Of a stretch of DNA of 64,000 nt, positions 686-4,231 are shown in pieces (within the stretch, counting starts at the first letter, position 1; each line of letters starts with the position of its first letter). Source of the stretch: Enterococcus phage CUB-FS. Location of the stretch: sequence record PV646497.1; one strand, given 5' to 3'. Position numbers and translations under genes: made by a program. The notes under the pieces are model-generated. The model worked only from the letters and a program-made list of their open reading frames with translations. It ran no database searches and was not told the DNA's origin.

Positions 686-1114
686 ATGGGTATGGCAGAT
701 AGACTTAAAGATAATGCAAAACAAAAAAAGTTAGAAAGAACACCAGAACAACAACTAAGAGACACATTTAATCAAGCTTCAATAAAGCTTATCAATCAAT
801 TTATGGCTAACGTTACATCAGGTGCTATAGAAGTTGATGATATTGCAGATTTAACAAGGCTATTTCAGATTTATTTACAGGTTAATAATATAAATGATGG
901 AATGCAAGAAGGTACAGGAACTCTACCTGCACTTACATCTGAGCATAAAGACATCATATCTGAAAAGGTTAGCACAGAAAAGATTATTAAGGACGGTGAA
1001 GAAGAGGAGCTAATTTCTCTTGATGAGTTAGCCAGCCTTCCAGATGACCAACTTGAGGAAGTCTTAGTTAACAGAGAGCTACAGATGAACAGAGAGAACG
1101 AGGCGACCTTCTAA
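686..1114 (+). CDS. Putative terminase small subunit
   Basis: 142-aa ORF translationally coupled (ATGA overlap at 1114) to the terminase large subunit ORF; acidic C-terminus; position only, no diagnostic motif. Confidence 0.35.
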   Translation: MGMADRLKDNAKQKKLERTPEQQLRDTFNQASIKLINQFMANVTSGAIEVDDIADLTRLFQIYLQVNNINDGMQEGTGTLPALTSEHKDIISEKVSTEKIIKDGEEEELISLDELASLPDDQLEEVLVNRELQMNRENEATF

Positions 1115-2331
1115 TGACGACAAAAGCACAACATATAGCTAAAATGGCTAAAGAGATGTATGGCACAGATAAAATTACAACGGAGCAGTTAGCTTATATA
1201 ACAGATATGCTGACCCCATCAACGTACCTATTGAGAAATCACTCTGTGCGTAATCACCCAATAACTTTTATTATATCAGGAAGGGATGCAACAAAAGCAC
1301 AGGCACACCGACCTTGGCAACCAAAGATAATAAATGACCAACATAGAGACAAGGCAATAATTAAATCAAGACAGCTAGGGCTATCAGAGATGGGTGTTGG
1401 TTCTATGCTACAGTTTGCAGATACACATAGTTATGATGCTGTTAAATGTCTTTATACATTTCCAACGAATGAGCAAATGACTAAATTTGTACAGACAAGG
1501 TTAGACCCTGTTTTACAGAATGGGTACTACAGCACAATTGTAGACCAAGAAGTTAACTCATTAAAAGCTAAAAAAATAAGAAATAGTTTTTTGTATTTTC
1601 GTTCAAGCTCAAAACCGGGCGCTGTAGAGGGTGTCGATATTGACTATCTATCTATGGACGAGTATGACCGTGTACCTGCATTAGCAGAGGCTTCTGCGTT
1701 GGAGTCTATGTCTTCTTCACCTTATAAGATAGTTAACAGATGGAGCACTCCAAGTGCCCCAGATATGGGAATACATGGGCTCTTTAAAGGGTCAGACCAA
1801 CATTGGTATTTACATAAATGTGAGAAATGTAATTATTATAACGAAATGAGTTATGATGCATATACACCAGAGGCTCCTGTAGAGAGTAGAGGTAACATTC
1901 TTTGTGTTAACCCAAAAGGGGTCGATGTTGTTGCTAAAACAGTAGTTGACGGCTCATTCCAGTTTGTTTGTCAAAAATGTGGAGAACCGTTAGACAGATG
2001 GTATAACGGTGTATGGGTACCTAAATACCCTGATAGAACAAAAAATGGTCTAGGTACTAGAGGATATATGATTTCCCAAATGAACGCAGTATGGGTAACT
2101 GCCGACCAGTTAAAGACCAAAGAACTTCAATCATTGTCTAAACAAGCCTTTTATAACTATACTCTTGGATACCCTTATGCAGACTTGAAATTAACTGTTA
2201 ACGACTCTGACGTTGATAGCCATAAGAGAAACTATTTAGTAGAACCTGCTAAAGACAGAGGTGACTATAAATTTATATCTGTTGGTATTGACTGGGGTTA
2301 TAGATTAGCCCCCATAAGTAGTAATACTTAA
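1114..2331 (+). CDS. Terminase large subunit, 5' exon (ATPase region plus first nuclease motif); the last codons before the stop may be intron read-through
   Basis: SRQLG (T4 gp17-like P-loop region), Walker-B-like IDYLSMDEYD, and C-terminal FISVGIDWG resembling terminase nuclease motif I; the ORF stops and the remaining nuclease motifs resume in ORF 3632-4231 after an intron-like insert. Confidence 0.55.
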   Translation: MTTKAQHIAKMAKEMYGTDKITTEQLAYITDMLTPSTYLLRNHSVRNHPITFIISGRDATKAQAHRPWQPKIINDQHRDKAIIKSRQLGLSEMGVGSMLQFADTHSYDAVKCLYTFPTNEQMTKFVQTRLDPVLQNGYYSTIVDQEVNSLKAKKIRNSFLYFRSSSKPGAVEGVDIDYLSMDEYDRVPALAEASALESMSSSPYKIVNRWSTPSAPDMGIHGLFKGSDQHWYLHKCEKCNYYNEMSYDAYTPEAPVESRGNILCVNPKGVDVVAKTVVDGSFQFVCQKCGEPLDRWYNGVWVPKYPDRTKNGLGTRGYMISQMNAVWVTADQLKTKELQSLSKQAFYNYTLGYPYADLKLTVNDSDVDSHKRNYLVEPAKDRGDYKFISVGIDWGYRLAPISSNT

Positions 2332-3631
2332 TGTAAAACCTTGTTAAACGGGCATAGTAAAATAATATACACATAAACAATATACTGGTAAGAGAGACTA
2401 AATCCTAGTGTATAAGGACAGAGTTAACCTACCGTGCTAAATCAGTTATAATGTAACTGTAAAAGCCTAACGACTAAATTTCTAGGTAGCTAACCAAATG
2501 GGGTTAGTGAGAACTAGATAAAAACTATGATATTGAATTGCGAACATGAGAAAATGAGGTAAAAAAATAATGGCGTTAAGAAAAACTAATGAAGAATGGG
2601 TGAACGAAGTACACCATGCTGTAGGTAACGATTATGTATTCCTAGAGCACTACATAAACAGTACTACAAAAATACTAGTAAAACACAACAAGTGTAATCA
2701 TATCTATAAAGTACAGCCAAAAGCTTTCTTATCAGGTAACCGGTGCCCTAACTGCAATACTGCTAGAAAACTAACAACCGCAGAGTTCACTGTTAAGATG
2801 AGTAACCTCCCAAAAGGAGGAGAGTACACATTAGTATCCGAGTATGAGGGACACCACAAAAAGATTACAGTTACACATAAAATATGTGGTAACACCTATT
2901 CAGTTCTTGCAAGTGACTTTATAAAAGGCAGACGTTGTGTTAGTTGTCTAAGAGCTAGTAACACAAAAACGCAAGAACAATGGGAAAAACAAGTAAGCAC
3001 ATTATCAGGTGATGAGTATACCTTCTTGGAACCATACGTTATGGATAACGTAAAGATTAGCTACCGTCACAATACTTGTGGTACAGAACATAAGGTAACC
3101 CCTAACAACTTTATAAATGGGACGAGATGTCCTAGGTGTAAAGATAGTAAAGGGGAAGCTCATATACGTAAATTCTTAACTGATAACAACATTGAGTTTA
3201 TACAACAAAAAAAATTCAATGATTTGCAGGTAGTTAAACAGCTATCCTACGACTTCTACTTACCTGAACTAAACATACTCATAGAGTTTCAAGGAGAGCA
3301 ACACTACAAACCTATTGACTTCTTTGGTGGCAGTGACAAATTTAAATGTCAGCAAGAACACGATAAGCTAAAGAGAGACTATGCTAAGCATAACGGAATA
3401 GGTTTTATAGAAGTTAAATATACAAAAGATACTTACAAAAAAGTAGCAAACTACTTAGCTCCCGCAATGGCTAAAGCAGTTAATAAATCATAGTGTAAAG
3501 CAAGGGTTCCTTAACCTAAATTAAGGAACATGATATAGTCTAGTCCCCTAATAAATATCGGGAAACCGAGGGTATAAACGAATCGTCACTGGGTATCAAT
3601 ACATGGTGTTAAAACAAATGGTACGGTAGAT
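2332..3631 (+). mobile_element. Putative group I intron interrupting the terminase large subunit gene (boundaries approximate)
   Basis: 1.3-kb non-terminase insert between two terminase segments; UAAACGGG (2345-2352) and GACUAAAU (2396-2403, 2476-2483) resemble group I P3/P4 and P7 core elements; contains a free-standing HEG with its own RBS; downstream terminase segment has no RBS. Confidence 0.5.
2570..3493 (+). CDS. Intron-encoded homing endonuclease: three zinc-ribbon repeats plus a C-terminal Vsr-like (DUF559/EDxHD-type) PD-(D/E)xK nuclease domain
   Basis: Three repeats of [H/K]xxCxx..Y.V....F..G.RCxxC; C-terminus IEFQGEQHY...D.LKRDYAKHNGIGFIEV matches the E-x-G-x-x-H ... D..R ... G..h.V Vsr-like endonuclease signature; strong RBS (GAGGTAAAAAAATAATG). 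Confidence 0.55.
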   Translation: MALRKTNEEWVNEVHHAVGNDYVFLEHYINSTTKILVKHNKCNHIYKVQPKAFLSGNRCPNCNTARKLTTAEFTVKMSNLPKGGEYTLVSEYEGHHKKITVTHKICGNTYSVLASDFIKGRRCVSCLRASNTKTQEQWEKQVSTLSGDEYTFLEPYVMDNVKISYRHNTCGTEHKVTPNNFINGTRCPRCKDSKGEAHIRKFLTDNNIEFIQQKKFNDLQVVKQLSYDFYLPELNILIEFQGEQHYKPIDFFGGSDKFKCQQEHDKLKRDYAKHNGIGFIEVKYTKDTYKKVANYLAPAMAKAVNKS

Positions 3632-4231
3632 TTGATAAAACTTTTTTCTGTGGGTAAGTCCAACCCGCTAGACCCTAATGCAATAGATGTAGACATACAG
3701 TCTATAAAATTACAGCTAGCTCCTTACAATCCAGATATAATCGTAGCTGACGTAGGAGACTCAGGGGATAAAGTTGCTAAACTTATGCAAATTTATGGAA
3801 AAGAACGAGTTTTTGGGTGTGTCTACCCATCAACCCCTAAATCTACTGGTAACCTAGTGCCTACTTGGAGCCCACAAGCAAATAAAGTATCCGCTGACAA
3901 GTTAATGCAGAATAAACGTTACATTAACAAGATGAAAGAAGGAGAAATAGGTTACTACTCAAAACCAGATACAGAGCTTAATTTATATAAAGAGCACTGG
4001 AAGAATGTTGTTATACGCGATATTGAGGACGAAAAGACATCGACAGGTTTTAGACAAATTATCGGCAGAAAAGGTGATGACCACTACTCACAAGCAAGCG
4101 TTTATTCCATGTTAGGGTATGAGTACCTAATGAATGTATTTACAGGAGTAAAAGAGTATGGATTTGACTCTGATTGGGTGTCAACTCAATTAGCACCTAC
4201 GAAACCTGATATATTTACAGAATTTGTATAG
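3632..4231 (+). CDS. Terminase large subunit, 3' exon (nuclease domain C-terminal part); true exon start is set by the splice site, not by the TTG at 3632
   Basis: IIVADVGDSGD and the C-terminal GDDHYSQASVYSM match the terminase hDDxxDA nuclease motif; no RBS upstream. Confidence 0.5.
   Translation: MIKLFSVGKSNPLDPNAIDVDIQSIKLQLAPYNPDIIVADVGDSGDKVAKLMQIYGKERVFGCVYPSTPKSTGNLVPTWSPQANKVSADKLMQNKRYINKMKEGEIGYYSKPDTELNLYKEHWKNVVIRDIEDEKTSTGFRQIIGRKGDDHYSQASVYSMLGYEYLMNVFTGVKEYGFDSDWVSTQLAPTKPDIFTEFV

Follow-up and report, generated by a model that had tools for sequence, protein, structure and literature searches.

The terL gene, encoding the large terminase subunit, of a phiEF24C-like Enterococcus phage (Kochikohdavirus, Herelleviridae) is most probably interrupted by a mobile, IA-like phage group I intron that houses a gene for a homing endonuclease and is predicted to splice (probability of about 0.92). 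The intron occupies positions 2299-3580 of the window, i.e. the whole stretch of 64,000 nt that was analysed. The element has an exact insertion point, a covarying secondary structure, an encoded protein with a nuclease fold and conserved catalytic residues, and a patchy distribution, and its removal restores the reading frame of terL. The proposal of a sequence-only reading that a group I intron with a zinc-ribbon/Vsr-like endonuclease divides terL is supported by the mapping of the junctions on an intron-less allele, by ribozyme homology and covariation, by fold comparison and by published parallels. The intron is real, yet ordinary, and this kind of mobile element has already been described in related phages. 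The coordinates of all features are compiled in Table 1.

Interruption of the terL gene

The open reading frame at 1114-2331 (405 aa), which had been read as a terminase ATPase, matched positions 8-370 of the PHROG 675 profile 'terminase large subunit' with an E-value of 2.7e-164 as well as Pfam GpA_ATPase, and that at 3632-4231, regarded as the rest of the terminase, matched positions 387-573 of the same profile (E 5.6e-59), so that both assignments were borne out. The gap between profile positions 370 and 387 is filled by 17 codons at 3581-3631. The 3' end of exon 1 was set by alignment to the intron-less terL gene of phage Sw5 (locus L001), which gives a 99% alignment to the window up to position 2298 and resumes at 3587. 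Joining of 2298 to 3581 yielded a TerL protein of 611 amino acids with no amino-acid difference from the uninterrupted TerL of Sw5, a comparison that had been suggested as a check of the spliced product, and the frame continues across the junction without gain or loss of a nucleotide. With the insert taken out, ATPase and nuclease domains form one continuous protein of PHROG 675, and the insert is missing at exactly this point in Sw5, EF24C and ECP3.

With the interruption corrected to 2299-3580, exon 2 starts 51 nt ahead of position 3632, the mechanically called ORF start from which it had previously been taken to begin, and the tail YRLAPISSNT at the end of ORF 1114-2331 represents read-through into the intron. 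An in-frame stop codon (3575-3577) lies directly upstream of exon 2 and is followed by no in-frame start codon before the TTG at 3632. At the cluster of synonymous differences near the start of exon 2 (3583-3598), the sequence is AATCGTCACTGGGTATC in the window and in Ef2.3 and AACAGACATTGGGTATCT in Sw5, EF24C and ECP3.

Table 1. Features of the terL region, with positions in the window
Feature	Position	Strand	Basis or remark
terS, small terminase, upstream neighbour	686-1114	+	PHROG 1063 'terminase small subunit', E 2.1e-43; context only
terL exon 1, 395 codons, ATPase domain and start of nuclease domain, 3' end ...FISVGIDWG	1114-2298	+	PHROG 675, Pfam GpA_ATPase; end by Sw5 alignment
Group I intron, 1,282 nt, terminal G3580	2299-3580	+	Absent from Sw5, EF24C and ECP3; removal restores 611-aa TerL
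P1 across 5' splice site (slash), GGGGU/UA (2294-2300) with UAGCCCC (2306-2312)	2294-2312	+	Read from sequence; Rfam P1 comprises the same bases
Ribozyme, 5' half	2315-2531	+	Alignment with 12 related introns; individual folds concur on P4-P6 domain
P2	2315-2320/2325-2330	+	GUAA loop; 5' half of ribozyme
P3	5' strand 2339-2344; 3' strand 3500-3505	+	3' strand in ribozyme 3' half
P4	2348-2352/2429, 2432-2435	+	
J4/5 hairpin	2356-2359/2383-2386	+	
P5; P5a	2396-2399/2422-2425; 2403-2406/2415-2418	+	
P6; P6a	2436-2438/2464-2466; 2443-2448/2454-2459	+	
P7	5' strand 2472-2476; 3' strand 3536-3540	+	
P7.1; inner stem	2481-2485/2514-2518; 2489-2495/2502-2508	+	
P7.2	5' strand 2525-2531; 3' strand 3487-3493	+	3' strand holds endonuclease stop TAG 3491-3493
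GAGG, candidate Shine-Dalgarno-like motif, 10 nt ahead of endonuclease ATG	2556-2559	+	Read from sequence
Homing endonuclease gene, 307 aa, in P7.2 loop	2570-3493	+	Pfam CapR/DUF4379; PHROG 559
Ribozyme, 3' half	3487-3580	+	P3 and P8 covary; P7.2 closing stem kept in most ORF-bearing relatives examined
P8	3506-3513/3522-3529	+	
P9; inner stem	3546-3548/3570-3572; 3558-3561/3566-3569	+	GAAA loop in inner stem; read from sequence; common to A511 intron
terL exon 2, 216 codons and stop, starts NRHWVSIHGVKTNGTVDLIKLFSVGK, rest of nuclease domain	3581-4231	+	Sw5 alignment; PHROG 675
Five clustered synonymous differences between intron-bearing and intron-less alleles (3583, 3584, 3586, 3589, 3598)	3583-3598	+	Allele comparison

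Secondary structure of the intron

At the 5' splice site, the P1 helix contains the wobble pair U2298·G2308, which adjoins four G-C pairs (2294-2297 with 2309-2312). In introns at other insertion sites both sides of P1 are changed and the pairing is kept, for instance as CCCU/GGGG. The intron ends in G, since G3580 precedes exon 2 at a junction that is fixed by the intron-less allele. The remaining helices were evaluated by covariation in a sample of 13 distinct introns, comprising the window intron and 12 related ones. In this sample 92.6% of the cells pair, compared with 77.4% in shuffled alignments, and both sides are changed in 39 of 70 pairs; none of 500 shuffles reached the observed values, and when the 3' partner was slid by 1-3 columns as a control, 33-46% were paired. 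Changes on both sides of a pair were detected in P2, P3, P5, P5a, P6, P6a, P7.1a and P8, and the core from P3 to P8 with its P3/P7 pseudoknot is supported by covariation, with P4, P7 and P7.1 neither supporting nor contradicting the structure because they are invariant among the 13 introns. Pairing is also retained in the P7.2 stems closing the ORF loop, the sequences of which are wholly different among the relatives, and this closing stem is present in most of the ORF-bearing relatives examined. P7.1, the inner stem of which covaries, and P7.2 are extra helices that follow P7 and precede the 3' strand of P3, and the intron is termed IA-like on account of these two helices rather than of a subgroup-specific model.

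The search of the whole window with Rfam at the gathering threshold yielded no matches. Against the group I model RF00028, the window intron scored 13 bits (E 3.2), below the gathering threshold of 50 bits. The low score is probably due to the position of the endonuclease ORF (2570-3493) in the P7.2 loop; about 950 nt break the core at P7.2, a distance that the model cannot bridge. Related ORF-less introns, which are 74-79% identical to the window intron in the core, reached 53.8 bits (locus L006), 36.6 bits and 27.9 bits, so that the proposed RF00028 check failed for the window intron itself and succeeded for one ORF-less relative above the threshold. Since the window intron has no direct model match, its group I membership rests on homology to the ORF-less relatives along with covariation. 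A permissive Rfam scan of the whole window gave no further intron-like match. Of the core strings listed in the sequence-only reading, TAAACGGG at 2345 and GACTAAAT at 2396 were recovered, and the second GACTAAAT was found at 2472 instead of 2476; a regex scan of the 64-kb window for the core strings of the intron family revealed a single copy, namely this intron. A P10 pairing of 2303-2306 (GAUU) with the first bases of exon 2 (AAUC) exists in the window, and it was not relied on because it is not conserved in the sequences of LY2 or Moonbeam, which were read by eye.

The endonuclease encoded in the P7.2 loop

The deduced endonuclease was assigned to PHROG 559 with an E-value of 1e-91. Its three zinc-ribbon repeats, already recognised in the initial reading, were all matched by Pfam CapR/DUF4379 and comprise approximately residues 1-64, 65-128 and 129-192, with the zinc ligands H39/C42/C59/C62, H103/C106/C123/C126 and H167/C170/C187/C190. 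The Vsr-like nuclease follows at about residues 193-307 and includes E196, D228, Q241, H245 and D265. In the structural model, which has a mean pLDDT of 91, this part adopts a Vsr-type nuclease fold according to fold comparison. No variation was seen among 38 homologues at E196, D228, H245 and D265, Q241 is conserved in at least 90%, and these four invariant residues along with all 12 zinc ligands are kept in homologues down to 37% identity.

An hhalign comparison of the family profile with E. coli Vsr, which is not significant (E 0.29) and was used for placing residues alone and not as evidence of homology, positioned E196, D228 and Q241 on E25, D51 and H64 of Vsr, residues named in the EDxHD paper (PMC3239194). 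By their spacing, H245 and D265 would occupy the last two places of the composite motif E…D…x…H…D (Vsr E25, D51, H64, H69, D97), which the endonuclease then contains with Gln at the position of Vsr H64. As this Gln is conserved to at least 90%, it represents the normal state of the family. Searches against PDB chains with the single sequence or a profile gave no nuclease match, including Vsr and I-Bth0305I, the NCBIfam search of the endonuclease returned nothing useful, and Pfam detected DUF559 alone in the C-terminal 119 amino acids (E 0.039). The nuclease assignment therefore rests on the predicted structure.

In total, 893 homologues of the endonuclease were found, so that the architecture, which had been called unusual, belongs to a populated family; homologues carry 2 to 4 repeats. 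The Vsr signature of this family was reported earlier from TerL introns (PMC11878797). An identical protein is already deposited in GenBank under the label "hypothetical". A promoter scan of positions 600-4400 detected 9 sites, fewer than the 13.6 in shuffled sequence, and a separate promoter of the endonuclease gene can thus not be claimed. The zinc-ribbon/Vsr endonuclease family is still biochemically uncharacterised. It is conceivable, with the odds somewhat against it, that the protein represents an uncharacterised Vsr-fold (EDxHD) branch whose target is set by an exchangeable zinc-ribbon array, each module reading a short stretch of DNA. If this were true, the array would constitute a naturally modular scheme of DNA recognition, and the occurrence of the same DNA-binding module in T5orf172 endonucleases would suggest that nuclease classes of separate origin have exchanged domains.

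Mobility of the intron and comparison with known systems

Among about 70 Enterococcus phage records that matched the intron at all, only 4 contained it, at 96-97% identity, and other close relatives were devoid of it. The insertion site is also occupied in the Bacillus phages LY2 and Moonbeam, and the Moonbeam endonuclease is 52% identical and likewise consists of 307 amino acids. The presence of the same intron in the same codon of Enterococcus and Bacillus phages from different subfamilies shows that the element has spread horizontally.

After transcription, the ribozyme would fold such that P1 presents the U2298·G2308 pair and the P3/P7 pseudoknot core binds guanosine, with P7.1 and P7.2 as peripheral helices. 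Two transesterifications would then lead to self-excision and to ligation of 2298 to 3581, and the ligated exons would be translated into the single TerL protein. The free-standing gene in the P7.2 loop, with a putative ribosome-binding site of its own, would provide a homing endonuclease that binds DNA by its three tandem zinc-ribbon modules and cuts by its C-terminal Vsr-fold (EDxHD-type) nuclease. During mixed infection, this enzyme may cut an intron-less terL allele near the insertion site in the conserved coding sequence for ...GIDWG/NRHW..., with a predicted target around the junction of GGTATTGACTGGGGT and AACAGACATTGGGT, and repair templated by the intron-bearing genome would transfer the intron, along with a short flanking exon stretch, to the cut allele.

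An intron that splices and no longer moves, with an endonuclease that is inactive or retained for a different function, for example as an aid to RNA folding, would be inherited only vertically. The Gln at the Vsr H64 position would suit this unlikely explanation, as would the common ORF-less derivatives (EF24C, A511, vB_Efa29212_3e), which imply that loss of the endonuclease happens in this ribozyme family. However, the ORF of the window intron is intact, its zinc ligands and the four invariant nuclease residues are conserved in distant homologues, the Gln is the family norm at a position filled by Asn in the active I-Bth0305I (PMC3239194), and the patchy presence among near-identical phages and the exon differences beside the junction fit recent transfer. 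It is far less probable that splicing does not take place at all, and that a free-standing endonuclease cassette has split terL into halves that are translated apart and combine to give a functional terminase. Examples of split phage genes with jointly functioning halves are known. In database records each piece is entered as a 'terminase large subunit' CDS of its own, and the inserted VSR genes in terL were treated in this way in the iF6 paper. Translation from the TTG codon at 3632, the first possible start after the stop codon, would nevertheless lose 17 conserved residues, the 358 non-coding bases that surround the ORF make up a conserved covarying ribozyme that would be pointless for a plain gene cassette, and the junction restores the frame exactly. 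The remaining proposal of the sequence-only reading, with exon 1 ending near ...GDYK (about 2271) and FISVGIDWG as an intron mimic of the exon-2 start, is refuted, since the similarity of 2269-2287 to 3638-3656 on which it was built (15 of 19 nucleotides, not 14) is meaningless for splicing with both stretches present in tandem in uninterrupted TerL genes, as in that of Sw5 with ...GDYKFISVGIDWGNRHWVSIHGVKTNGTVDLIKLFSVGK... in one piece, since 34 conserved residues would be deleted, and since P1 and its U·G pair are located at 2298 and not near 2271.

The main value of recognising the intron lies in annotation, as it leads to the correct single TerL of 611 amino acids. Deposited Enterococcus phage genomes present this terL gene as two or three 'terminase' fragments and 'hypothetical proteins', and an upstream terL fragment was treated as non-functional in at least one paper (PMC10054541). 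A correct TerL matters for phylogeny and for genome checks of therapeutic phages.

The phage IA2 introns (T4 td/nrdB/sunY, Twort orf142, SPO1 DNA polymerase) possess, like the window intron, a self-splicing-type core with P7.1 and P7.2, and they are located in conserved DNA-metabolism or packaging genes and may carry an endonuclease ORF in one of the peripheral loops. The phage 'IA2' group is heterogeneous according to a survey of 2025 (PMC11878797). In the same survey (NAR 2025), PHROG 559 proteins with a VSR signature were described inside the TerL introns of Bastillevirinae, with Moonbeam, phiNIT1-like and Caeruleovirus phages as carriers, and splicing of TerL introns from related Bacillus phages was demonstrated both in vitro and in vivo. 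Gene family (PHROG 675) and endonuclease family (PHROG 559) are the same as in the window, and intron 2 of Moonbeam and the intron of phage LY2 share the insertion point D-W-G/N-R-H-W and the ribozyme family, with 74-75% core identity. The window phage, in contrast, belongs to the Brockvirinae, a subfamily outside the Bastillevirinae survey and without a mention there (PMC11878797), and our literature search found no description of this intron in phiEF24C-like phages.

The endonuclease I-Bth0305I from the recA intron of Bacillus phage 0305phi8-36 (PDB 3R3P; PMC3239194) is likewise intron-encoded and has E, D, H and D of the EDxHD motif at corresponding positions and, at 'x', a residue other than His (Asn there, Gln here). 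No sequence similarity between the two proteins is detectable. The N-terminus of I-Bth0305I is a NUMOD/helix-turn-helix region, whereas the window endonuclease lacks such an N-terminus and carries the three zinc-ribbon repeats in its N-terminal 192 residues; the NUMOD/helix-turn-helix region is an accessory of the prototype and not of the nuclease family. Moreover, the ORF is placed in P5 of the I-Bth0305I intron and in P7.2 of the window intron. A parallel in domain layout is provided by the CapR/DUF723/DUF4379 zinc-finger arrays of T5orf172 phage homing endonucleases (PMC10448857), in which tandem zinc-ribbon modules of variable number are likewise joined to a nuclease, the partner being the GIY-YIG-like T5orf172 domain in those enzymes and a Vsr-like domain in the protein encoded by the terL intron.

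The terL exons and their junction

The insert in the terL gene is, as judged from its sequence, a group I intron that would be removed by splicing, and the main interpretation of the sequence-only reading is thus supported. ORF 1114-2331, regarded there as a terminase with ATPase motifs, matched the PHROG 675 profile for 'terminase large subunit' at positions 8-370 (E 2.7e-164) as well as the Pfam GpA ATPase, and ORF 3632-4231, regarded as the rest of the terminase, matched profile positions 387-573 (E 5.6e-59). An uninterrupted terL gene of 1,836 bp is present in phage Sw5 (OX463805), to which the window is 99% identical up to position 2298 and again from position 3587. 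This comparison left 2298/3581 as the only junction preserving both frame and protein, and the insert therefore comprises 1,282 nt (2299-3580). The joined exons encode 611 amino acids without a single difference from the Sw5 TerL protein; the 22 nucleotide differences between the genes are synonymous. Five of them are packed into positions 3583-3598, directly past the junction, and the final 160 nt of exon 1 show no differences from intron-less alleles. This cluster fits either a short co-conversion tract from an intron donor or an altered endonuclease target.

Exon 2 starts 51 nt upstream of ORF 3632-4231. Since a stop codon is located in its reading frame at 3575-3577 and the first in-frame start codon is the TTG at 3632, separate translation of exon 2 would cost 17 conserved residues. 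The fallback that exon 1 ends at GDYK was discarded because intron-less proteins hold ...GDYKFISVGIDWGNRHWVSIHGVKTNGTVDLIKLFSVGK... uninterrupted. The similarity noted between the 19-nt stretches at 2269-2287 and 3638-3656 is real, but it amounts to 15 rather than 14 matching positions. A role of these stretches, which encode KFISVG and KLFSVG, in splicing was rejected, as both copies lie within the intact terL genes of intron-less phages; the similarity is probably due to chance or to two alike strands of the nuclease domain. The insertion point falls in the ...FISVGIDWG... motif, earlier taken for nuclease motif I, which presumably supplies the nuclease domain of the terminase with its first catalytic Asp.

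The 3.4-kb region is 97-99% identical to phiEF24C-group Enterococcus phages (Kochikohdavirus, Brockvirinae, Herelleviridae), with alignment coverage varying by record because the relatives hold different inserts in terL. A 15-pair hairpin with a T-rich tail (4238-4272), 7 nt past the terL stop codon, resembles an intrinsic terminator; five such sites were found in the region and 2.2 were expected from shuffles.

Ribozyme core and covariation

At the Rfam gathering threshold (50 bits for the group I intron model RF00028) the insert yielded no match, and a permissive RF00028 scan gave only 13 bits (E 3.2), probably because the ribozyme is broken by about 950 nt; this alignment nonetheless set P1 on GGGGU/UAU...UAGCCCC. 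A search with the intron only detected four near-identical copies (96-97%) in the phages Ef2.3, phiM1EF22, vB_OCPT_Car and vB_OCPT_Carl. For the two non-coding ends it also retrieved many remoter relatives, some of them lacking an ORF, from phages of Listeria, Bacillus and Staphylococcus. The three ORF-less relatives scanned with RF00028, from vB_Efa29212_3e, EF24C and A511, scored 53.8, 36.6 and 27.9 bits, and their cores are 74-79% identical to that of the window. The helices were derived from alignments of the relatives and then transferred to the window. All core strings quoted in the sequence-only reading are present, with one position to be corrected (GACTAAAT at 2472, not 2476). The helices P7.1 and P7.2 characterize the intron as IA-like.

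Features of the terL region and its predicted group I intron
Feature	Position or 5' strand	3' strand	Remark
Small terminase gene	686-1114		upstream of terL; PHROG 1063
Ligated-exon junction	2298/3581		predicted from sequence; ...GACUGGGGU/AAUCGUCAC...
Intron-less terL site			GGTATTGACTGGGGTAACAGACATTGGGTATCT
Variant exon sequence			AATCGTCAC
P1	2294-2300	2306-2312	U2298·G2308 at splice site
P2	2315-2320	2325-2330	GUAA loop
P3	2339-2344	3500-3505	
P4	2348-2352	2429, 2432-2435	
J4/5 hairpin	2356-2359	2383-2386	
P5	2396-2399	2422-2425	
P5a	2403-2406	2415-2418	
P6	2436-2438	2464-2466	
P6a	2443-2448	2454-2459	
P7	2472-2476	3536-3540	
P7.1	2481-2485	2514-2518	inner stem 2489-2495 / 2502-2508
P7.2	2525-2531	3487-3493	encloses ORF loop
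P8	3506-3513	3522-3529	
P9	3546-3548	3570-3572	inner stem 3558-3561 / 3566-3569, GAAA loop
Terminal G of intron	G3580		
Virion structural protein gene			downstream of terL

Additional family members were gathered from viral contigs by means of a core string, and 13 distinct cores were aligned after removal of the P7.2 inserts. Standard pairs occupied 92.6% of the cells, compared with 77.4% in shuffles, and 39 of 70 pairs were altered on both sides (23.0 in shuffles); the observed value was reached in none of 500 shuffles. Sliding the 3' partner by 1-3 columns as a control left 33-46% of the cells paired. Two-sided changes occurred in P2, P3, the J4/5 hairpin, P5, P5a, P6, P6a, P7.1a and P8; in P3, two double changes separate the window (CCUUGU/GCAAGG) from the commonest version (CUCUGU/GCAGAG). 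P4, P7 and the outer P7.1 are invariant among the 13 cores and uninformative for or against the structure. Comparison of the window with LY2, Moonbeam and most other ORF-bearing relatives examined showed P7.2 stems around the ORF loop that are unrelated in sequence and yet pair, which places the endonuclease gene in the terminal loop of P7.2; its stop codon (3491-3493) falls in the 3' strand of the stem. The ORF-less A511 intron retains a 78-nt insert at P7.2 (1695-1772 of that sequence), the ends of which are nearly identical to the flanks of an ORF-bearing loop of about 1 kb in a related intron (L015, minus strand, around 2915-3921). To judge by these ends, A511 looks like a case of clean endonuclease gene loss with the stem left behind.

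The predicted intron-encoded endonuclease

The 307-aa product of ORF 2570-3493 is the zinc-ribbon protein recognized in the sequence-only reading, with three Pfam CapR / DUF4379 stretches and a match to PHROG 559 (E 1e-91). Its sequence is that of 'hypothetical protein PHIM1EF22_0060' (100% identity). At E ≤ 1e-5, 893 homologues were recovered, most with Pfam CapR, DUF4379 or DUF723. The number of repeats ranges from two to four among homologues. An alignment of 38 sequences revealed that HxxC…CxxC is kept in each of the three N-terminal repeats and that E196, D228, E239, G242, H245, D265 and K268 of the C-terminal domain are invariant, with Q241 conserved to at least 90%. The EDxHD family is defined by Vsr E25, D51, H64 (Asn in I-Bth0305I), H69 and D97 (PMC3239194). 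An hhalign comparison, by itself not significant, placed E196, D228 and Q241 on E25, D51 and H64, and the spacing of H245 and D265 suggests that they occupy the remaining two positions. With this placement, the conservation of E196, D228, H245 and D265 and an AlphaFold model of mean pLDDT 91, the nuclease domain, already described as Vsr-like, is grouped with the Vsr-fold / EDxHD enzymes, and the protein is predicted to be active. The modelled Vsr fold is at odds with 'HNH endonuclease', the name given to PHROG 559. A GAGG motif precedes the ATG by 10 nt, and a promoter scan gave no signal above chance.

Distribution and comparison with known systems

In two Bacillus phages, LY2 and Moonbeam (the second terL intron in the latter), a ribozyme of the same family interrupts terL at exactly the same codon boundary as in the window, D-W-G/N-R-H-W. 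No intron is present at this site in the close relatives Sw5, EF24C and ECP3, where the sequence is AACAGACATTGGGTATCT; in the window and Ef2.3 the intron is followed by AATCGTCACTGGGTATC. Elsewhere in terL, the family is inserted after codon 68 (ECP3, vB_Efa29212_3e), codon 123 (EF24C) and about codon 94 (A511). Members in relatives were located in Ef2.3 (about 139-1238, 1456-1772 and 2595-3876), EF24C (784-1067), ECP3 (619-1996) and vB_Efa29212_3e (about 783-1950); three ribozyme core signatures are present in Ef2.3, within terL and a short way upstream of it. Among the introns of close relatives, some bear other endonuclease genes (with HNH-type annotations) and others have no such gene. 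In the phiEF24C group, terL is a hotspot that has been invaded at several independent sites. Together with the patchy presence and the short tract of exon differences at the junction, these sites suggest a mobile intron, which typically leaves such marks.

In deposited genomes the terL exons are entered as separate 'terminase large subunit' CDSs, exon 1 is named 'terminase small subunit' in several Listeria phage records, and the endonuclease goes under 'hypothetical protein' or 'HNH endonuclease'. A literature search for this intron in phiEF24C-like phages retrieved no description. VSR endonuclease genes inside terL were noted in Enterococcus phage iF6, the small terL fragment being read as non-functional and not as an exon (PMC10054541).

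Intron invasion of core genes, including terL, is well documented in the Herelleviridae. A 2025 survey of the Bastillevirinae, which did not cover Enterococcus phages, reported four proteins of PHROG 559 that bear a 'VSR endonuclease' signature; each is encoded in an intron of a PHROG 675 TerL gene, two of them in Moonbeam. It also demonstrated splicing of other TerL introns in vitro and in vivo (PMC11878797). The DNA-binding part of the window endonuclease differs from that of the prototype I-Bth0305I and matches the zinc-finger arrays of T5orf172 homing endonucleases (PMC10448857). The combination of intron and endonuclease has been described before, and the window element is a further case from another phage subfamily.
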